A stretch of DNA of 60,445 nucleotides. It comes from Patescibacteria group bacterium. GTDB taxonomy: Bacteria; Patescibacteriota; Patescibacteriia; JAXHNJ01. Shown here in pieces: positions 2,303 to 40,921 of the stretch; position 1 is the first letter of the stretch; every line of letters begins with the position of its first letter. The stretch lies in contig JBDRMK010000009.1 in the NCBI GenBank assembly GCA_043812155.1, forward strand, positions 1 through 60,445, given 5' to 3'. The position numbers and the translations under genes were made by a program. The notes under the pieces are model-generated. The model saw nothing but the letters and a program-made list of their open reading frames with translations, searched no databases and was not told where the DNA came from.

Positions 2303-2851
2303 ATGGATAACGACAAAATAGTGGTTGAGGGTCAAAAAATAGTCGATTTTTTTAAAAACGATCTTTCTACTATCCGGACCGGCAGAGCCTCGCCCGCCCT
2401 CATTGAAAATTTAATGGTTGATTATTACGGAACGAAAACCCCTTTGATCCAATTGGCCAGCATAAATATTCCCGAGTCAAAAATGATAGTGATTCAGCCC
2501 TGGGACAAAAATATTATTAAAGAAATAGAAAAGGCCATTCAGGCCTCGGACTTAGGCCTAAATCCTGTTAACGAAGGTCAGGTCATTCGCTTGATAATCC
2601 CTCTGATGACCGAAGAGCGCCGGCTGGAGCTGGTTAAGATTATCCATCAGAAAGCGGAAAGCGCCAAAATGAAAATCAGGAATATCAGAGAAGAGCAGAT
2701 AAAAAAGCAAAAAAAACAGAAAGAGGGCGGCGAGATCGGTGAAGACGTCTTCTACCGTCTGCAGGAGGAATTGCAGGAAAAGGTGGAGGAGTTCAACCAG
2801 AAGGTCAAAGAGCTGGCCGAGGAAAAAGAAAAAGATGTCATGACCATTTAA
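2303..2851 (+). CDS. frr: ribosome recycling factor
   Basis: IRTGRASP, IQPWDK, LGLNP and TEERR motifs. Confidence 0.97.
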   Translation: MDNDKIVVEGQKIVDFFKNDLSTIRTGRASPALIENLMVDYYGTKTPLIQLASINIPESKMIVIQPWDKNIIKEIEKAIQASDLGLNPVNEGQVIRLIIPLMTEERRLELVKIIHQKAESAKMKIRNIREEQIKKQKKQKEGGEIGEDVFYRLQEELQEKVEEFNQKVKELAEEKEKDVMTI

Positions 2852-2854
2852 TTT

Positions 2855-3985
2855 ATGCTTCTTACTTTCATCACTTTCATTATTGTCTTCAGTGTCGTAA
2901 TTTTTGTCCATGAATTCGGTCATTTTATGGCTGGTCGGAAGATGGGGGTGAAGGTGGAAGAATTCGGTTTCGGCTATCCGCCCCGCTTGAAAGCCATAAA
3001 GAAGAAAGGCACGGAATATTCCCTAAACTGGATCCCTTTCGGCGGTTTTGTCAAATTAAAAGGATTGGAAGAGGGCAGCCGGGAGGTCAAGGAAAAAGAT
3101 TTAGAAAAAGATAGTTTTAGCGGCAAAAAAATCTGGCAGCGAGCATTAATCCTATCCGCCGGCGTCCTTATGAATTTTTTACTGACTTTTTTTCTGGTGA
3201 CGCTAGGGTATATAATCGGCTTGCCATCAGCGATTGACGAAAACACGACCGGTAAAATCAGAAATGAGCAGATCCAAGTTTATGAAGTTTTAGAAAATTC
3301 GCCCGCTGAACTGGCCGGCCTTAAGACCGGGGACGCGATTATCGCTATTGATGAACAAAAATTCACGAAAATAAACGATTTGCAGGCCTATGAAGCGGAT
3401 AAAATTGATCAAACTCTGGAATTAACCGTGAAAAGAGGGAACGAATTAACCGCCATTTCCGTAAAACCTCAAGTTATGGATGAGACAAAGCAGGGTAAAC
3501 TTGGCGTGAGCTTGGTGGAAACCGCCTTGGTTTCATATCCGGTTCATATCGCTTTATATAAAGGTCTGGTCACTACCGGTTCTTTGATTTCCCAAATCGT
3601 ATACGGTATCTATGATATTATAAAAACCGCCATTATAAGCCATCATGTTTCCACCGATATTGCGGGACCCGTAGGCATCGCCGTTATCTCCGGACAAGTG
3701 GCGAAAATGGGTTTTATATATATCCTTCAATTCGTCGCTATCCTTTCCACTTCGCTGGCGATAATGAACTTTTTACCCCTGCCGGCTTTGGACGGCGGGC
3801 GACTGCTATTTTTGTTTATCGAAAAAATAAGAGGCAAGCCGGTTAACCAAAGAATAGAAAACTTAGTGCATACGTTTGGATTTTACCTGCTATTTTTGCT
3901 TTTAATTGTGGTCAGTTTTAGGGATTTGCAGAGATTTAATATTTTCCAGTCATTGTATAATTATATAAAAAATATTTTCGTTTAA
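2855..3985 (+). CDS. rseP: RIP metalloprotease RseP (M50, PDZ)
   Basis: HEFGH, IPFGGFV, PDZ domain, NFLPLPALDGG. Confidence 0.93.
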   Translation: MLLTFITFIIVFSVVIFVHEFGHFMAGRKMGVKVEEFGFGYPPRLKAIKKKGTEYSLNWIPFGGFVKLKGLEEGSREVKEKDLEKDSFSGKKIWQRALILSAGVLMNFLLTFFLVTLGYIIGLPSAIDENTTGKIRNEQIQVYEVLENSPAELAGLKTGDAIIAIDEQKFTKINDLQAYEADKIDQTLELTVKRGNELTAISVKPQVMDETKQGKLGVSLVETALVSYPVHIALYKGLVTTGSLISQIVYGIYDIIKTAIISHHVSTDIAGPVGIAVISGQVAKMGFIYILQFVAILSTSLAIMNFLPLPALDGGRLLFLFIEKIRGKPVNQRIENLVHTFGFYLLFLLLIVVSFRDLQRFNIFQSLYNYIKNIFV

Positions 3986-24436: not shown

Positions 24437-25372
24437 ATGCTTCCCCTATTCAAAGAATATATTTCATATTTAAACACAAAAATCTATTCCAAAGAAACCG
24501 TTTACAATTACGAAAGAGATTTGAAAGTCTTTGAAGAATTCCTGCAGGAGATGGGTCTCCCCTGGAAAAAGCTCAATCGGAGGGCCATTGAACAATACAA
24601 GGCCTATTTGACCTCCATTGACCGAAAAACGGCCCAGAACGCCAAAATAGAGGCTAAATTGGGCTCTTACAGCATTAATCGCATGCTTTCAAGCCTTAGA
24701 TCTTACCTCAAGTACTTAATTGATAATGAATACGAAACACCCATTTCACCGGAAGTGGTGAAGCTGACTAAGACAGAGAAAAAACACCCCAGAGTCGCGG
24801 AACTCCAGGACTTGATCCGCTTAATTGAATCCCCTGCTGTTTTTGAAAAAAACAAGGAAGTGATTTTGCGCAACCGCGCCATGCTGGAAGTTTTATTTTC
24901 CACTGGCTTGCGCATCTCGGAGCTGACCAATCTTAACCGCGACCAGATTGATAATTCCGGCAAGATCTTTGTCATGGGCAAAGGGAAAAAAGAAAGATTC
25001 GTTTATCTGACCGAGAGAGCCAAAGAACATCTGAAAAACTATCTAAATACCAGAAAAGACAATTCCCCTAGCCTATTCATCCCCTACCGCGGCTCGGCGG
25101 TCAAAACCACGCACCGAAGAATTTCCATAAATTATATTCAGGAAAGAATAAAAAGATACCGGGAGCTTTTAAAAATAAACGTACCAACGTCAGCCCATAG
25201 TTTAAGACACGGCTTTGCCACATATTTAGCCGAATCCGGCGCCAATCCCGCGGCAATTCAAATATTACTAGGCCATGAGTCGTTAGATACGACAACTCGT
25301 TATGTTCATGCCTCTGATAGATATGCAGAAGAGACAATGAAAAAATTTCATCCGTTAAAAAATAAGCAATGA
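24437..25372 (+). CDS. tyrosine recombinase, XerC/XerD family (second copy)
   Basis: RNRAMLEVLFSTGLRISEL, GKGKKER, HSLRHGFAT, LGHESLDTTTRY. Confidence 0.93.
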   Translation: MLPLFKEYISYLNTKIYSKETVYNYERDLKVFEEFLQEMGLPWKKLNRRAIEQYKAYLTSIDRKTAQNAKIEAKLGSYSINRMLSSLRSYLKYLIDNEYETPISPEVVKLTKTEKKHPRVAELQDLIRLIESPAVFEKNKEVILRNRAMLEVLFSTGLRISELTNLNRDQIDNSGKIFVMGKGKKERFVYLTERAKEHLKNYLNTRKDNSPSLFIPYRGSAVKTTHRRISINYIQERIKRYRELLKINVPTSAHSLRHGFATYLAESGANPAAIQILLGHESLDTTTRYVHASDRYAEETMKKFHPLKNKQ

Positions 25373-27278: not shown

Positions 27279-27392
27279 AAAAACCCGGCCGAAAGGGCCT
27301 TTTTTGTTAAATCCAAAGCACAAAGCACCAAATCCAAAACAATATCAAATGCTCAAAATTCAAAATTCGAAACACGACGGCTATCCCCTGCT
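27279..27392 (+). repeat. composite intergenic element copy B
   Basis: aaaaacccggccgaaagggccttttttgttaaa, low-complexity tract, then cacgacggctatcccctgct; the hairpin part occurs a third time at 27772-27805. Confidence 0.7.
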
Positions 27393-28702: not shown

Positions 28703-29170
28703 TTATTCCAATAAATCTTCCGGCGTCACCCATTTCCCATTCGGCACGCTGTTGCAGGCGGCGGCGGCGTAAGCCACGGATTCATCGGTATAGCCTCCAG
28801 AGCCTTCACTGTAAGCCCAGGCGATTGATTCCATGACAGAGCCGCCATTCATCTGGCAGCCGCCGAATTCGGAATAAGGGCAGGCGTTCAGGGAAAAAGT
28901 CCGGCTTTCTCCGCAATTTAATTTGGCGGAGTCGCTGTCATTCCACATGGAACCGACATAATCAATACAATTGCTGGAATTAACAATGTCATTGCAGCTG
29001 GCATAAACCTTTCTCGGGCCGGTTTCTTTTAAGCCTTCAGTCACTTGCTCCAAGTCCGTATTTTCGTCCACGCCTGTCTCTTCCGGCAGATTTTCCGTCC
29101 GTCCGGCTAAAAAGTAATAACCCAGGGCCCCGACCCCTAAAACCAGGATAACGATCAATACTTTGGTCAT
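28703..29170 (-). CDS. membrane-anchored Cys-rich hypothetical protein
   Basis: N-terminal TM anchor, acidic linker, six Cys in the external domain. Confidence 0.7.
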   Translation of the reverse strand: MTKVLIVILVLGVGALGYYFLAGRTENLPEETGVDENTDLEQVTEGLKETGPRKVYASCNDIVNSSNCIDYVGSMWNDSDSAKLNCGESRTFSLNACPYSEFGGCQMNGGSVMESIAWAYSEGSGGYTDESVAYAAAACNSVPNGKWVTPEDLLE

Positions 29171-30536: not shown

Positions 30537-30568
30537 AAAAAAAGCGGGCTGTTAGGATACAGCCCGCT
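30537..30568 (-). terminator. intrinsic terminator of the rSAM-precursor operon
   Basis: agcgggctgt...acagcccgct stem followed by T7 on the minus strand. Confidence 0.8.
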
Positions 30569-30590
30569 GAAAAGGACTAGAAGATTTTGA

Positions 30591-30779
30591 CTAGTCCCCT
30601 GGATCGTCGCCTTGGTCGGGACCGGAAGGACAATCACAGTCATTTTGGCCGCAATCGCCATCGCAGTCGCAACCGCCGTTGACACCGGCCGCGAACGCCC
30701 GCAGCGGCGTTTCAGCCATTGCCTTGGCAGAAACCGTGGCAAAATCACGGCTGACTAGACCTTCAATGATACTGCTCAT
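30591..30779 (-). CDS. putative RiPP precursor peptide (Cys/Asp-rich core after Gly-Gly)
   Basis: AGAAAGGAGG SD; leader ending VNGG, then CDCDGDCGQNDCDCPSGPDQGDDPGD; directly downstream of the SPASM rSAM gene. Confidence 0.75.
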   Translation of the reverse strand: MSSIIEGLVSRDFATVSAKAMAETPLRAFAAGVNGGCDCDGDCGQNDCDCPSGPDQGDDPGD

Positions 30780-30836
30780 GGTAGGGGTTCCTCCTTTCTA
30801 TCATGAGACATTTAGAGAAAATAAACCTCCTTTCTT

Positions 30837-31841
30837 TCATGAGGCCTTTGGAAGGCCGGGAATACTTGCTCTGGCATCGCGCGCAAACCAGATGAGATTG
30901 CATCCGCCGCGGCAAGTCGTCCAGAGCCGGCAATCCGTGCATTTGTCACTGGGCGCGTGCGTTTCCAAAAAGAGTTTCTCTATTTCTCGCGTTTTCAGGA
31001 AACTCGTGATCGCTTCCGGATCATTCAGATTGCCATAGCTTAAGTCAGGCATGTGGGTGCAAGGATTAAGATTGCCGAAAGGATCGACCGCTACTGCCGT
31101 GCCATAGAAACTGCAGGACACACGTAGCCTACCTGACTGAATGAGTTGAGGAAGGGCCGCCTGGTCAAAAAGGCAGAGAGGTATCAGCGCGTAGAACCGC
31201 ACAAAATCATACTTCTGCCCGATCGACTCGACCACGCGGGCGTAATCCGCCAAATCAATCTGTCCGTTATGTTCGCGAGGCGGGTACCCGCTTGGCTGCG
31301 CTGAGCACATATTGAAGGCGGCAACGCGCACCCGTAAATCACGGAGTATTTGTACCACCTCTTCAATAATCTCAAGGTTGTAGCGGCTGACGGTGGTAAT
31401 GCTGTTGCAGCGGATATCCGCCGTTATCAGATTACGCAAACCCTGCATAGACTCCTGGAATGAACCGGGCACTCGAGTGATGTGGTCATGGACCGCTTCA
31501 GTCCCTTCAATTGAGACGGCGCAATAATGCAAACCCGCCTGCTTGAGTGCCGTCACTAGGGCCATGTCTTTTAGCGCGCGGCCGTTGCTCATGATCCTTA
31601 CTTCAATCCCGAGACCGGACATGAAGTGCACCAACGGCACAATATCAGTGTAGTCTGTCGGTTCGCCGCCCACAAGAATGCACGATTTTGCACCCGCCGC
31701 CGCCAACTGCCGCACGTAAGATTTTGCGGTCTCGAGTGTCACAGCACTCTCTTTAGAAAGCTTTGCCCCGGCGTAGCACATTCGACAACGGTTTTTGCAA
31801 TCGTAAGTTGGAGAAAACCAAAATCCGGAAATCCCTTTCAT
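30837..31841 (-). CDS. radical SAM/SPASM domain protein (putative peptide maturase)
   Basis: CKNRCRMC, GGEP, and SPASM motif C...GNLNPC...CTDCRLWTTCRGGC; AAGGAGG SD before ATG 31841. Confidence 0.9.
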   Translation of the reverse strand: MKGISGFWFSPTYDCKNRCRMCYAGAKLSKESAVTLETAKSYVRQLAAAGAKSCILVGGEPTDYTDIVPLVHFMSGLGIEVRIMSNGRALKDMALVTALKQAGLHYCAVSIEGTEAVHDHITRVPGSFQESMQGLRNLITADIRCNSITTVSRYNLEIIEEVVQILRDLRVRVAAFNMCSAQPSGYPPREHNGQIDLADYARVVESIGQKYDFVRFYALIPLCLFDQAALPQLIQSGRLRVSCSFYGTAVAVDPFGNLNPCTHMPDLSYGNLNDPEAITSFLKTREIEKLFLETHAPSDKCTDCRLWTTCRGGCNLIWFARDARASIPGLPKAS

Positions 31842-31937
31842 GACACCCTCCTTATTTGTAAAAGAACAGGCCATTGTTTTGCCCTGATCCAAGTCTTTCT
31901 ATTCTAGCCCTGTGCTCAAGATCTCGGGCTTCTCTCT

Positions 31938-31966
31938 TTTATATACCTTATTAAAGAAACTGTCAA
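31938..31966 (-). promoter_or_regulatory. sigma70 promoter of the rSAM-precursor operon
   Basis: TTGACA-17-TATAAA on the minus strand. Confidence 0.65.
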
Positions 31967-32015: not shown

Positions 32016-32205
32016 ATAAAAAAAGCGGCTCAATCCCCTATTGGGCAAATCCCAAGCACCCTGCCTCACCGACCGGCGGGCAAGCTACAAATAAATTCAA
32101 AGCACCAAATCCTAAATCCAAAACAAATCCGAATATCTAAATTCCAAATCCAAAACCACGTTAGAAACGCCGTTTCTAAACAGGGAAACAAATTCCAAAT
32201 TCCAA
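32016..32205. repeat. intergenic repeat cluster (half-terminator copy, small palindrome, AAATCC/AAATTC tract)
   Basis: ataaaaaaagcggctcaatcccct shared with 35212; cctgcc...ggcgggcaag; many aaatcc/aaattc units. Confidence 0.6.
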
Positions 32206-35273: not shown

Positions 35274-37139
35274 CTACCGCAGAACTACGATCTTCTGCGT
35301 TTTGATTTCCGCGCCGGATGAGAGCCGGAGGAAGTAGACCCCGGAAGCACCTTGGTGCTGGTACGCGAACCGGTATTGACCCGTTTCCCTCTGCTCATGG
35401 TTGATAAGAGTCTTGACCAGCCCTCCGTTTACGTCGTAGACCGAAAGCGAGATCAAGCCGGCCTTCGGCACGTTGTAGATGATCGTCGTCATCGGGTTAA
35501 AAGGATTCGGGTAAGCGCTTAAGGCCAGTTTCAGCGGGGGCAGATCTTCCACGCCGGTCAGGTAGGCCGGTGAGGACACGCCGCTTTCGTTGCCGTTGAA
35601 ATCGGTGACGGAAACGAAGTAATAGGTGCACCCGGTTGCTTCGCTCAGATCATAGCTGTTTTCCGTAGTGTGTTCGATCAGCACAGCTGTTTCGTCGAAC
35701 TCGGCTGACGAAGACCCGTAGATTGAGTAGAAGTTGAAATCAGGCTCGCTCGCCGGGTTCCAAGTGAGCATGTCCGCTTCGACGCTCAGATTCAGAGGCG
35801 CGGCCGGGGCAAGATTGTCCACGGAATAACCGGAGTCAACCGCAGAGTCAAAGTAAACCAGAGGGTCGGCCGTGGCCGCCCGGATGAAGAACTCTGACCA
35901 GTAGATGCCTTGTTCTTTGGTGGAATCGGCCAGCGTGGGCGCAATCATGTTGTATCCGTCTTCGCCGTGAGCTGGAATGGCGCCGACAAATTCCCAATCC
36001 ATAAGCATCGGCGAAGGATGCAATATCTGGCCTTGGATTTTGGTTGGCGCGCTGTTCACGGTTGCGTTCAGCAAGGGATCAATCCGGCGGTATGCCTCAT
36101 ACTGCAGGATCGGGGTGAGAGAATTGTAAGAGTCTCTTCCTGATTTGGTAAAGTTAAGACGAACCAACCGGCCTTGATCGTTCACAACGTCCTTGATAAC
36201 CAAGTCATGCGGGGCCAGAAACCCGAACTTCTGGACGCGGTTGTTTAAATAATCAGTCACATAGATATTACCCCAGGCGTCAGCTGCGATATCCGCAGGC
36301 CACCTAAACTGACCATCACCACCGCCGCTTGTTCCCCACTTGAGGATAAACACGCCTTCACTCGTGAACTTCTGGACGCGGTTGTTTTCATATTCAGCCA
36401 CATAGACATTACCCCAGGCGTCAACCGTGATGCCACGGGGGTAATAAAACTGACCATCGCCAATGCCGATAGTTCCCCACTTGAGGATAAACTCGCCGTC
36501 ACTCGTGAACTTCTGGACGCGATAGTTTCCATAATCAGTCACATAGATATTACCCCAGGCGTCAGCTGCGATGCCCGCAGGGTAATTAAACTGACCATCG
36601 CCAGTACCGGCAGTTCCCCACTTAGTGATAAACTCGCCTTCACTCGTGAACTTCTGGACGCGGTTGTTTCCATAATCAGCCACATAGACATTATTCCCGG
36701 CGTCAACCGTGATGCCAAAAGGAGCATAAAACTGACCATCGCCAGCGCCGTATGACCCCCATTTGAGGATAAAGGTGCCGTCACTCGTGAACTTCTGGAC
36801 GCGGTTGTTTCCATATTCAGCCACATAGACATTACCCCAGGCGTCAGCCGCGATACCCGCAGGGTAATTAAACTGACCATTGCCAGTACCGTATGTTCCC
36901 CACTTGCGGATAAACACGCCGTCACTCGTGAACTTCTGGACGCGGTCGTTCATATAATCAGCCACATAGACATTACCCCAGGCGTCAGCTGCGATACCCG
37001 CTGGGCAATTAAACTGACCATCGCCAGTACCGGCAGTTCCCCACTTGAGGATAAACTCCGGCGGGTCTTCCGCTTGAGCCAGACTTGCGGCAAACAGGGT
37101 GATGAGCGCGATAAAGATGACAAAGAGCGTTCTTTTCAT
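35274..37139 (-). CDS. secreted NHL-repeat beta-propeller protein with a FlgD-Ig/T9SS type A-like C-terminal domain
   Basis: Signal peptide (AQA), six 47-aa NHL repeats (GQFNYPAGIAADAWGNVYVADY.N.RVQKF), C-terminal AYPNPFNP...ASGVYFLRL...TQKIVVLR. Confidence 0.88.
   Translation of the reverse strand: MKRTLFVIFIALITLFAASLAQAEDPPEFILKWGTAGTGDGQFNCPAGIAADAWGNVYVADYMNDRVQKFTSDGVFIRKWGTYGTGNGQFNYPAGIAADAWGNVYVAEYGNNRVQKFTSDGTFILKWGSYGAGDGQFYAPFGITVDAGNNVYVADYGNNRVQKFTSEGEFITKWGTAGTGDGQFNYPAGIAADAWGNIYVTDYGNYRVQKFTSDGEFILKWGTIGIGDGQFYYPRGITVDAWGNVYVAEYENNRVQKFTSEGVFILKWGTSGGGDGQFRWPADIAADAWGNIYVTDYLNNRVQKFGFLAPHDLVIKDVVNDQGRLVRLNFTKSGRDSYNSLTPILQYEAYRRIDPLLNATVNSAPTKIQGQILHPSPMLMDWEFVGAIPAHGEDGYNMIAPTLADSTKEQGIYWSEFFIRAATADPLVYFDSAVDSGYSVDNLAPAAPLNLSVEADMLTWNPASEPDFNFYSIYGSSSAEFDETAVLIEHTTENSYDLSEATGCTYYFVSVTDFNGNESGVSSPAYLTGVEDLPPLKLALSAYPNPFNPMTTIIYNVPKAGLISLSVYDVNGGLVKTLINHEQRETGQYRFAYQHQGASGVYFLRLSSGAEIKTQKIVVLR
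36226..37060 (-). repeat. 141-bp tandem coding repeat (six units)
   Basis: cactcgtgaacttctggacgcg recurs at 36359, 36500, 36641, 36782 and 36923, exactly 141 bp apart. Confidence 0.9.
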
Positions 37140-39163: not shown

Positions 39164-40921
39164 CTATATAAACCCTCCCGCCTGAAGCTGCCAGAGATTT
39201 TTATAGATGCCGCCCGGTTTTCTGATCAATTGATTATGCGTCCCCTCTTCCGCGATCTTGCCCTGGTCTATCACAATGATCCGGTCCATTTTTTTAATGG
39301 TGGAAAGACGGTGGGCAATGGCCAGTACGGTTTTATTTTTCATCAATTTATCCAAAGCGTCCTGGATCAGTCGCTCTGATTCAGAATCCAAAGATGAAGT
39401 CGCTTCGTCCAAAACCAGAATCGGCGCGTTATAAAGAATCGCCCGGGCAATGGCCACCCGCTGGCGCTCGCCGCTTGACAGCTTGATGCCCCTCTCGCCG
39501 ACGTGAGTCATATAGCCTTCGGCCAGCTTCTCGATGAACTCATGGCAATGGGCTTTTTTCGCCGCCTCTATGACTTCGCTATCTTTGGCTTCCGGCCGGC
39601 CGTAGCGAATGTTATCCATTAAGCTCCGGTGGAACAAGATCGGATCCTGGGGCACCAGGCTGATCTGTCGGCGCAGGCTTTTTTGGCTGACGCGGCTGAT
39701 ATTCTGGTTATCAATAAGTATCTGTCCGGCCGTCACTTCATGCAGGCGGAGCAAAAGCTTGATCAGGGTTGTTTTGCCCGCGCCGGAAGGGCCGACAATG
39801 GCCAGTCTTTCGCGAGGCTTGACTTCCAAGCTGAAATCCTTTAAAACGGTCCGGGTTTGCTGGTAATTGAAATCAACGCGGTCAAAATTTAGGCGCGCTT
39901 CGGAAACGCGGAGATCTTTGGCTTTTGGCACGTCCGTGATTTCTACCGGTGTTTCCAAAATAACGGTCATTTCTTCCGCGTCCGCCAGGCTTTCATAGAT
40001 ATGGCGGATTATTTTGCCGAAATCCCAGATGCGGGCGAATATGTTAAGAAGATAGGTCTGGATCAGGACAAAATCGCCGATGGTCAAAACGCCCTTTTGC
40101 CATAAATCAATGGCTAAAAAGAAGATCCCGATCTCCAAGGCCGTCATAAGCAAACCCTGGACCGCCTCAAAAATATTGCCGTAATCCCAGGTCAGCTTGC
40201 GCAAACGCCTTAACTGTTCGTTGACCTGACTAAAACCAGAAACCTCGCGCTCATAGCCGTCAAAAAGCTTGATCGTGCTTTGGTTGGTTATGCTGTCGGC
40301 GATCACGGCCGTGGTCCGGGTTTCCGCTTCGCTTCTCGCCAGATCATATTTCAGCTTAAAACGGATAAAGACACTGTTGACGATAAGGAAAATCACGAGC
40401 CAAACCAAAAGACCCGCCCCCAAATAAAAATTCCGGCGGAAAAGGATGTAAATGATGATGGCGATGTTCACGAACAATGGGCCCAGATCCCAGAATAATT
40501 TGTCGGTAATGACCTCAAACGAGCGGCCGAACCATTTAACTTTTTTGACGAGCGAGCCGACGAAATTATCCGTGAAAAAACCGTATGAGTGCTTCTGCAG
40601 ATAGCCGAAGCAAAAATCAGTCAGATCCGCCATCACTTTGGACTGAAAATAGCTGGCGGAAAAAGTGCATAGCCGGTAAAAAAGCCATTGGCCAAAGCGC
40701 AGGATAGCGATGATGACGACCACGGAAATTAAACTCTTTGCTACACTGGAAATCATCTCTCCGCTGGTCATCAGGTCAACGAATTTTTTCAAATACAAAG
40801 GCACGACCACGTTGATCACCGCCGCGCCGATCACCCCGACGACGGTCAGAACAGCCGTTTTTTTATAATGTAAGCTGGCCCGCCAGTAATAGCCTAATGT
40901 TTTTCTGATGTTAAAACGCAT
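39164..40921 (-). CDS. ABC exporter, fused permease/ATP-binding (MdlB/MsbA-like)
   Basis: Six-TM N-terminal domain, GPSGAGKT, LSSGERQR, LVLDEATSSLD, AHRLST; no C39 peptidase domain. Confidence 0.93.
   Translation of the reverse strand: MRFNIRKTLGYYWRASLHYKKTAVLTVVGVIGAAVINVVVPLYLKKFVDLMTSGEMISSVAKSLISVVVIIAILRFGQWLFYRLCTFSASYFQSKVMADLTDFCFGYLQKHSYGFFTDNFVGSLVKKVKWFGRSFEVITDKLFWDLGPLFVNIAIIIYILFRRNFYLGAGLLVWLVIFLIVNSVFIRFKLKYDLARSEAETRTTAVIADSITNQSTIKLFDGYEREVSGFSQVNEQLRRLRKLTWDYGNIFEAVQGLLMTALEIGIFFLAIDLWQKGVLTIGDFVLIQTYLLNIFARIWDFGKIIRHIYESLADAEEMTVILETPVEITDVPKAKDLRVSEARLNFDRVDFNYQQTRTVLKDFSLEVKPRERLAIVGPSGAGKTTLIKLLLRLHEVTAGQILIDNQNISRVSQKSLRRQISLVPQDPILFHRSLMDNIRYGRPEAKDSEVIEAAKKAHCHEFIEKLAEGYMTHVGERGIKLSSGERQRVAIARAILYNAPILVLDEATSSLDSESERLIQDALDKLMKNKTVLAIAHRLSTIKKMDRIIVIDQGKIAEEGTHNQLIRKPGGIYKNLWQLQAGGFI

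Follow-up and report, generated by a model that had tools for sequence, protein, structure and literature searches.

The 60,445-nucleotide contig JBDRMK010000009.1 of a Patescibacteria group bacterium (assembly GCA_043812155.1), referred to here in its whole length as the window, encodes a radical S-adenosylmethionine (SAM) enzyme followed by a short open reading frame (ORF; 30779-30591 in full, minus strand) for a 62-residue peptide rich in cysteine and aspartate. An earlier note on this DNA had singled out these two genes as a minimal system for a peptide made by the ribosome and modified after translation (RiPP) with a double-glycine leader. In the analysis described here, the conserved enzyme-peptide pair, the leader and core of the peptide and the uncurated status of the family held up, whereas the double-glycine idea did not. 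Both genes, the two AGGAGG sites and a terminator lie on the minus strand and, together with a promoter-like site, are arranged as follows.

31938-31966, minus strand: promoter-like site read by eye, TTGACA (31966-31961), 17-nt spacer, TATAAA (31943-31938)
31847-31852, minus strand: ribosome-binding site AGGAGG, 5 nt upstream of the ATG of the enzyme gene
30837-31841, minus strand: radical SAM enzyme of 334 amino acids (P0001) with a SPASM-type C-terminal region and without an N-terminal RiPP precursor recognition element (RRE)
30790-30795, minus strand: ribosome-binding site AGGAGG, 10 nt upstream of the ATG of the peptide gene
30672-30779, minus strand: putative precursor leader, residues 1-36, with the conserved pattern M-x-T-I-I ... 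R11 ... V16-S17 ... A-L/M, as seen in alignments and in predicted enzyme contacts
30594-30671, minus strand: putative precursor core, residues 37-62, CDCDGDCGQNDCDC and an acidic tail; stop codon at 30593-30591
30537-30568, minus strand: intrinsic terminator with a 10-bp stem, a 6-nt loop and seven T

A second terminator (32262-32235) ends the gene upstream of the cassette, so that the enzyme-peptide pair is a closed unit, as the earlier note had held; the Shine-Dalgarno (SD) sequences that it placed before each gene are likewise there. The promoter that it proposed is confirmed only in part: the two hexamers and their spacer are recognizable by eye, but a sigma-70 consensus scan, which requires T at the end of the second hexamer, found no promoter and rejects the site on that base alone. 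The junction between the genes contains a 27-nt duplication (30790-30816 and 30826-30852; 85% identical), each copy of which includes AGGAGG and CTCATGA; the first copy overlaps the stop codon of the enzyme gene and is followed by a possible mini-ORF of 11 codons that ends on the start codon of the peptide.

Conservation of the enzyme-peptide pair

Pattern scans yielded three loci from species-representative genomes and 37 from metagenomes; the family considered here consists of 16 loci, the window and 15 others, in which the enzyme is at least 45% identical. In 12 of these 16 loci (the window, L002-L007, L010 with two copies, L011, L012, L014 and L017), a complete peptide is encoded directly 3' of the enzyme on the same strand, and the remaining four are all truncated by contig ends: in L009, the conserved leader is present before the contig breaks off, the L008 contig stops at the SD sequence and the ATG, and those of L013 and L034 stop inside the enzyme gene. 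Wherever a related locus extends far enough, accordingly, the peptide recurs beside the enzyme, and the pairing is obligate and beyond chance; a search of this kind, for similar peptides next to homologous radical SAM enzymes, was the one that the earlier note had proposed. An all-against-all BLAST comparison of ORFs of at least 50 amino acids, taken from 12 loci and from kb 22-40 of the window, showed that no genes other than those for the enzyme and the peptide are widely shared. The enzyme gene is distributed over two frames in two metagenome contigs, L007 (4001-5025) and L017 (199-674), possibly by a frameshift or an assembly error.

In the peptides of the family, a conserved leader is followed by a linker that differs in length, then by a conserved core and by an acidic tail that varies; this is the layout of a RiPP precursor, and a precursor with a leader and a Cys-rich core beside a SPASM radical SAM enzyme is the arrangement typical of sactipeptides and ranthipeptides. 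After the VNGG of the window peptide comes a 26-residue tail that, when counted by hand, contains five Cys, nine Asp, two CDC motifs and one CGQND, precisely as described before. In an alignment of 25 peptides, R11, C39, D47, D49 and C50 are invariant, and M1, V16, D38, G41, D42, G44 and C48 are nearly so. The C-x3-D motif that the earlier note had emphasized is conserved, but the invariant signature of the family cores is, instead, G-x-x-D-C-D-C. The core of 13 residues, D-C-D-G-D-C-G-x-x-D-C-D-C, includes 11 invariant positions, and synonymous codon changes were detected among the 12 loci at all 11; the protein is kept while the codons vary, that is, the peptide core evolves under purifying selection. 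In L010 (1948-3183 and 4993-5387), there are two tandem precursor genes with diverged cores, and a gene for an IS605-type TnpB lies upstream of the cassette; L014 contains an ORF related to this TnpB.

The double-glycine label finds no support. Gly-Gly precedes the core in four of the 25 family peptides, the others having A-G, E-G, L-A, M-A and similar pairs, and no match to Peptidase_C39 (PF03412) was found in the host genome, which is 99.8% complete (the control was matched in seven of 14 genomes). The peptide thus falls outside the double-glycine leader class, which is defined by a conserved Gly-Gly/Ala/Ser and a C39 peptidase-transporter.

No family in NCBIfam or Pfam, SCIFF and other curated precursors included, was matched by the peptide at E <= 1, and an ESM Atlas search with the peptide gave no usable feature match (the structure rows were disregarded given the peptide model pLDDT, the predicted local distance difference test score, of 0.37). 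A profile built from 14 peptides and compared with 1.84 billion representatives retrieved 17 proteins at E <= 0.001, of which 16 are 52-100 amino acids long and one is a protein of 2518 amino acids (E 1e-5). An AGGAGG-like site precedes the peptide ATG in all 12 family loci (GGGGG in L014) and in two near relatives. Nothing was found in favor of reading the small ORF as a frame open by chance or as non-coding DNA, and this explanation is scarcely credible: it is contradicted by the synonymous variation over an invariant protein core, by the ribosome-binding sites and by the recovery of the 16 short peptides with the profile. The peptide gene is real.

The enzyme and its predicted complex with the peptide

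The enzyme was aligned with 21 of its 26 other close homologues, the fragments P0010, P0012, P0024, P0028 and P0029 being omitted. The cluster motif CKNRCRMC (C15-x3-C19-x2-C22) has all three Cys invariant in 22 of the 22 aligned sequences, and so are all four Cys of the second motif, C301-x2-C304-x5-C310-x3-C314, both motifs having been described in the earlier note. The score of 73.9 bits with the Pfam model Radical_SAM (PF04055), against a cut-off of 29.5, assigns the enzyme to this superfamily. The SPASM region is characterized by a seven-Cys pattern, namely, C-x9-15-G-x4-C, a gap, C-x2-C-x5-C-x3-C, another gap and a last C; the first element is represented by C243-x12-G256-x4-C261, which is invariant among the 22 enzymes. 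Four further invariant Cys, C54, C107, C179 and C223, lie outside the cluster motifs, and C179 is part of the family signature F-N-M-C-S-x-Q-P.

A word-indexed search with the enzyme retrieved 42 proteins at E <= 0.001, of which 27 (its own sequence included) are at least 50% identical, with the next at 30%; given this abrupt drop in identity, the enzyme family is small and sharply bounded. Full-length close homologues have 330-345 amino acids, and no fused longer forms were found among the close homologues in this search, which spanned proteins of 183-585 amino acids. The first cluster Cys is residue 15, which leaves no space for an N-terminal RRE, as had been pointed out before, and no match to PF05402 (PqqD/RRE) was detected in the host genome at E <= 0.1. 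The cassette thus has neither a fused nor a discrete PqqD-like element and lies outside the RRE-dependent maturases.

Comparison with NCBIfam produced 69 matches, of which 25 were listed. Those that extend over the full length of the enzyme include GeoRSP (78.7 bits), ACGX (74.8), StsB (70.7), DynA (69.4), MftC (66.7), anSME (65) and PapB (47.6); the PqqE model gives 48.1 bits. The AlphaFold model of the enzyme has a mean pLDDT of 79.6, with low values beyond residue 297. Four enzymes that modify peptides, SkfB, anSME, SuiB and CteB, are among its fold matches, with query-normalized template modelling (TM) scores of 0.57-0.69, but BlsE and viperin, which are radical SAM enzymes that do not act on peptides, match it equally well and within the same range. 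The nearest solved chain by sequence is SkfB, for the radical SAM core only.

A complex of the two proteins was predicted from the enzyme and peptide alignments together with three 4Fe-4S clusters and SAM. The complex score was 0.76 (0.74, 0.76 and 0.76 in three runs), compared to 0.02 for the best of three controls; the mark that it passes is attained by 58 of 80 solved complexes and by two of 110 mismatched pairs, counts that are only a rough guide here because our own alignments and riding ligands were used. The runs shared at least 52% of the contacts, with a partner pLDDT of at least 54. In the model, leader residues 13-17 and 20 are placed on enzyme residues 293-308, at the start of the C-x2-C-x5-C-x3-C region, whereas core residues 37-42 touch the barrel at positions 8, 55, 57, 84, 108, 146, 148, 175 and 177, of which W8, N146, I148 and N177 are invariant in the family. 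Solved complexes of SuiB with SuiA, CteB with CteA and anSME with a peptide are among the fold matches, and since enzyme-peptide complexes of this fold have been solved, the pass may partly reflect likeness to them. The model supports binding of the peptide to the enzyme, and the position that it occupies there is a predicted one.

Candidate chemistry and related enzyme-peptide pairs

We consider it reasonably likely that the locus is a self-contained two-gene RiPP cassette that represents a new family of RRE-less, radical-SAM-modified peptides, with Cys-to-Asp thioethers as the probable modification. The 62-residue product would be the precursor, with its conserved N-terminal leader, variable linker and conserved acidic Cys/Asp core; the enzyme, having no RRE, would hold the leader on its own C-terminal SPASM-type region and thread the core into the barrel, over SAM and the cluster of the radical SAM motif. 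There, the enzyme most likely would take a hydrogen from an Asp carbon and bond that carbon to the sulfur of a neighboring Cys, and the outcome of several such passes would be a thioether peptide like the ranthipeptides or sactipeptides, small, knotted and strongly anionic. Because the core contains almost only Cys, Asp and Gly, Cys-centered chemistry with Asp as the partner is the simplest reading; by analogy, thioether formation with Asp as the acceptor is plausible.

Several observations weigh against this interpretation, in the same direction as the two reservations on the complex prediction given above. The enzyme scores 17.4 bits with the Pfam SPASM model (PF13186), below the cut-off of 21.5, and the seventh, last Cys of the SPASM pattern is missing in the window enzyme and in 18 of the 22 aligned members; the corresponding position, S326 in the window enzyme, is Cys in four of the 22, His in seven and another residue in 11. 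Among the NCBIfam matches listed, the enzyme lies far under every curated cut-off, and the top scores are with enzymes of the haem pathway rather than peptide maturases (AhbD, 97.2 bits against 500; NirJ2, 89 against 500). The AhbD alignment is confined to residues 12-206, and the enzyme is not a member of the AhbD/NirJ group. Nor does it belong to the PapB family as modelled by NF047865 (47.6 bits against a cut-off of 340). Finally, no protease, exporter or immunity gene was found beside the pair in any locus examined, so a secreted bioactive product is not indicated.

Among the known systems, the SCIFF/maturase pair (CteA/CteB, thermocellin) is similarly minimal, a short peptide rich in Cys being combined with its SPASM maturase and with no known dedicated protease or exporter, and CteB is among the fold matches of the window enzyme (entries 5why and 5wgg); however, CteB has 421-440 residues in the solved chains compared to 334 here, and the SCIFF core differs both in its Cys pattern and in not being acidic. 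The GeoRSP (TIGR04303) and ACGX-repeat (TIGR04340) enzymes, computationally defined partners of Cys-rich peptides neither of which, to our knowledge, belongs to a characterized system, resemble the window enzyme in having short SPASM profiles (325 and 341 positions) that align along the full length, but the scores of 78.7 and 74.8 bits compare to cut-offs of 400, and the peptide families are unrelated. QhpD is a SPASM enzyme that makes thioethers from Cys to Asp/Glu within the small polypeptide QhpC of quinohemoprotein amine dehydrogenase; QhpC is an enzyme subunit that is processed with further factors, and QhpD is not among the 25 of 69 NCBIfam matches listed for the window enzyme.

The PapA/PapB system (freyrasin, a ranthipeptide) similarly combines a SPASM radical SAM enzyme with a peptide containing repeated Cys and Asp. 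PapB is described as joining the Cys sulfur to the Asp beta-carbon across 0-6 intervening residues (PMC9413430; PMC10739248), and the window core offers C-x0, C-x2 and C-x3-D spacings. By contrast, the core motif and the leader of the window peptide are unrelated to those of PapA, and the PapB literature, in passages of PMC9413430, assumes that the leader binds to an RRE, which the window enzyme does not have. CrpC, a SPASM enzyme of Methanococcus voltae, is described as installing thioethers on CrpA, a Cys-rich and Asp/Glu-rich protein that is encoded beside it and has a leader-like N-terminus and a C-x-x-Q/D motif (PMC13692751). According to the same source, CrpA is a large protein with ten 17-residue repeats, unlike the 62-residue window substrate, and CrpC belongs to TIGR04463 and has a predicted RRE, unlike the window enzyme.

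Beyond the close family, 15 of 18 loci in which the enzyme is 24-39% identical have, adjacent to it and on the same strand, a small ORF rich in C-x-C (CDC, CQC, CSC). The peptides are of several types.

L015, L016: peptide ending in ...W-D-C-D-C-C-D-K
L018, L019, L022: runs of CDC, CSC and CES in two peptides encoded upstream
L021: peptide with CDC and CSCDC
L023, L025, L026, L027, L030: peptides ending in ...C-Q-C-Q-C-R-R
L024, L031, L032, L033: other C-x-C cores

The three exceptions are L020, with a weak candidate only, which has no ribosome-binding site, and L028 and L029, which end 27 and 97 nt past the enzyme; L029 is nearly identical to L033. As a crude control, open frames with at least two C-x-C in a stretch of 20 residues were counted: the 35,071 bp that lie no more than 700 nt from the enzyme contain 21 of them, in 20 of 33 loci, compared to six in the remaining 152,425 bp. 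In an enzyme tree of 25 sequences, from which partial, split or duplicate genes (L004, L007, L013, L016, L017, L019, L028, L034 and others) and L032, with an internal stop, were omitted, the CDCDGDCG-type clade with L015 and the CQCQC-type clade each have 100/100 support, while the deep joins, on long branches, are unsure. The peptide types follow the enzyme clades. The more distant relatives and their peptides all fall short of every curated NCBIfam model. The C-Q-C-Q-C-R-R peptides constitute a separate conserved family of about 41 amino acids, encoded 3' of a monophyletic enzyme clade. In L018, L019, L021 and L022, the Cys/Asp-rich peptides are encoded upstream of the enzyme, and downstream there is an ORF of about 107 amino acids that, judged by eye, resembles the mobile domain of phosphoenolpyruvate (PEP)-utilizing enzymes.

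These distant relatives bear on the reaction itself. They keep C-x-C while the middle residue varies among D, Q, S and N, so what they have in common as a target may be the two Cys and not the Asp. The peptide could then be a substrate for a reaction other than Cys-to-Asp thioether formation, namely, a sactionine (Cys to the alpha-carbon of Gly or Gln), an anSME-like oxidation of Cys, an epimerization with an enzyme Cys as the hydrogen donor or some C-x-C-dependent reaction, and the presence of anSME among the fold matches, as well as the invariant Cys outside the cluster motifs, with C179 next to the predicted contacts 175, 177 and 183, would fit such chemistry. However, within the close family, D38, D47 and D49 vary no more than the Cys do, and the core has almost no other reactive side chain. 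Moreover, anSME substrates carry a C/S-x-P/A-x-R site, which the peptide does not have. On balance, we regard a different reaction as a serious but distinctly less probable option than Cys-to-Asp thioethers.

It is unlikely, in our view, that the peptide is not a substrate at all but either assists the enzyme as a small partner that binds metal or Fe-S or, as a free peptide, binds metal and needs no covalent change. The four invariant Cys of the peptide (C39, C43, C48 and C50), together with the many Asp, could bind metal; no protease or exporter is found among the neighbors of the cassette; and an enzyme without the last SPASM Cys also would be compatible with such a role. Yet, the succession of leader, variable linker, core and variable tail and the tandem, diverged copies in L010 are typical of precursors, and the complex model puts the core in the active-site barrel. 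The peptides of the related clades, in addition, have three Cys only (C-Q-C-Q-C-R-R) or many more, and this varying number fits poorly with one fixed metal site.

A bolder extension of the RiPP cassette reading, which we offer as a speculation with the odds clearly against it, is that the pair belongs, as a single clade, to a wide and so far unnamed class of short, RRE-less SPASM-type enzymes that read the leader with the SPASM region, act on C-x-C motifs and are spread through ultra-small uncultured bacteria and other metagenomic lineages, the product in the present case being not an antibiotic but a thioether-caged, polyanionic Asp cage that binds a metal such as Ca, Fe or Zn in the service of a cell whose metabolism is minimal. 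The D-x-D-G-D spacing of the core, as we take it, recalls Asp-rich calcium loops, but no Pfam match supports this likeness.

Radical-SAM-modified peptides are a main source of new peptide chemistry, and large-scale mining for them has leaned on the RRE: a compendium of approximately 15,000 enzymes is described as taking only RRE-associated ones, so that RRE-less enzymes are excluded by design (PMC10288494). With no RRE, a two-gene layout and short, cloneable genes, the cassette makes for a clean test case, which raises the questions of how a SPASM enzyme recognizes a leader without an RRE, what becomes of a C-D-C motif under radical chemistry and why a 1.1-Mb genome pays for such a product. 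One survey presents Patescibacteria metagenome-assembled genomes (MAGs) without detected biosynthetic clusters (PMC11613949), and another reports some such clusters in Patescibacteria (PMC9927545). A full-text literature search for the core motif returned nucleotide notation only, and the literature on radical SAM RiPPs or ranthipeptides in the candidate phyla radiation (CPR)/Patescibacteria consisted, in the portions available, of surveys with nothing on this family, an entry for which might exist in the supplements of PMC10288494 or in the RiPP-RaS dataset. With no curated NCBIfam model reached by either protein, no Pfam match of the peptide and no literature found on the motif, the earlier suggestion of an undescribed family is supported.

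Genomic surroundings and distribution

The host genome, at 1.14 Mb and 99.8% completeness, and its class relatives, with 0.7-1.3 Mb, fit the earlier description of a reduced CPR genome. The named relatives are MAGs of Parcubacteria and Staskawiczbacteria and one contig binned as Gammaproteobacteria, and the public annotation is only 'radical SAM protein'. Among 41 relatives (E <= 1e-20), the enzyme was detected in the host genome only, and among 401 genomes of the phylum (E <= 1e-50), the host genome is again the single match. A genome of the same genus is syntenic at window positions 24469-25370 and 39169-40000 but has no counterpart of the cassette, which therefore lies in a variable region. 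The distribution of the cassette is accessory or patchy. The GC content of the enzyme (53.1%) and peptide (58.7%) genes, compared to the window mean of 45.2% (standard deviation 4.2, 1-kb windows), is suggestive of foreign origin, no more.

This distribution also bears on another possibility, namely, that a small cofactor is built on the peptide, which would serve as a sacrificial scaffold in the manner of PQQ or mycofactocin. The SPASM enzymes of these two pathways, PqqE and MftC, do score weakly with the window enzyme (see above). The PQQ and mycofactocin pathways, however, need peptidases and further enzymes, none of which is linked to the cassette loci; the C-termini of the peptides vary; and the presence in one of the 401 sampled genomes, with absence from the same-genus genome, fits an accessory trait rather than a cofactor. 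A cofactor scaffold thus appears very improbable.

By Pfam, neither the neighbors of the cassette in the window nor 20 flanking ORFs in six other loci include a protease or a transporter, in agreement with the earlier note. The variable region (about 25.4-37.1 kb) contains, in addition to the cassette, two DUF3137 membrane proteins, a PEGA-domain protein and an NHL-repeat protein. The last one (35274-37139, minus strand; 621 amino acids) carries a Por_Secre_tail sorting domain (type IX secretion), in a genome of 1.1 Mb. A 57-nt direct repeat flanking 27.3-32.1 kb at first looked like the boundary of an island but is dispersed, with 40 matches across the genome, so a repeat-bounded island was rejected. 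The dispersed A/C-rich intergenic repeat, about 65 nt long, occurs on both strands genome-wide, with copies in the window at 32092-32156 and 27308-27373, and one copy separates the promoter-like site of the cassette from the terminator upstream.

Near the cassette, at 28703-29170 (minus strand), there is a gene for a predicted secreted, Cys-containing protein of 155 amino acids with no Pfam match, which is 37.5% identical to the product of the gene right after the peptide in L002 (5277-5735) and is rare, being present in four of 151 class genomes. Obligate linkage of this protein to the cassette is ruled out by its presence in three genomes without an enzyme match. Upstream of the L002 cassette (2801-3451, minus strand), a membrane protein of 216 amino acids, also with no Pfam match, has a C-terminal tail rich in Cys and Asp, with several Asp in a row at its end, which is reminiscent of the peptide core. 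The host genome as a whole has six SPASM matches, four of them over the cut-off, and 14 radical SAM matches. On its contig C6 (locus L045, 2078-3618, minus strand) lies a second pair, a radical SAM/SPASM enzyme of 441 amino acids and, immediately after it, an ORF of 72 amino acids, neither of which reaches an NCBIfam model; the C-terminus of the 72-residue ORF is Cys-rich.

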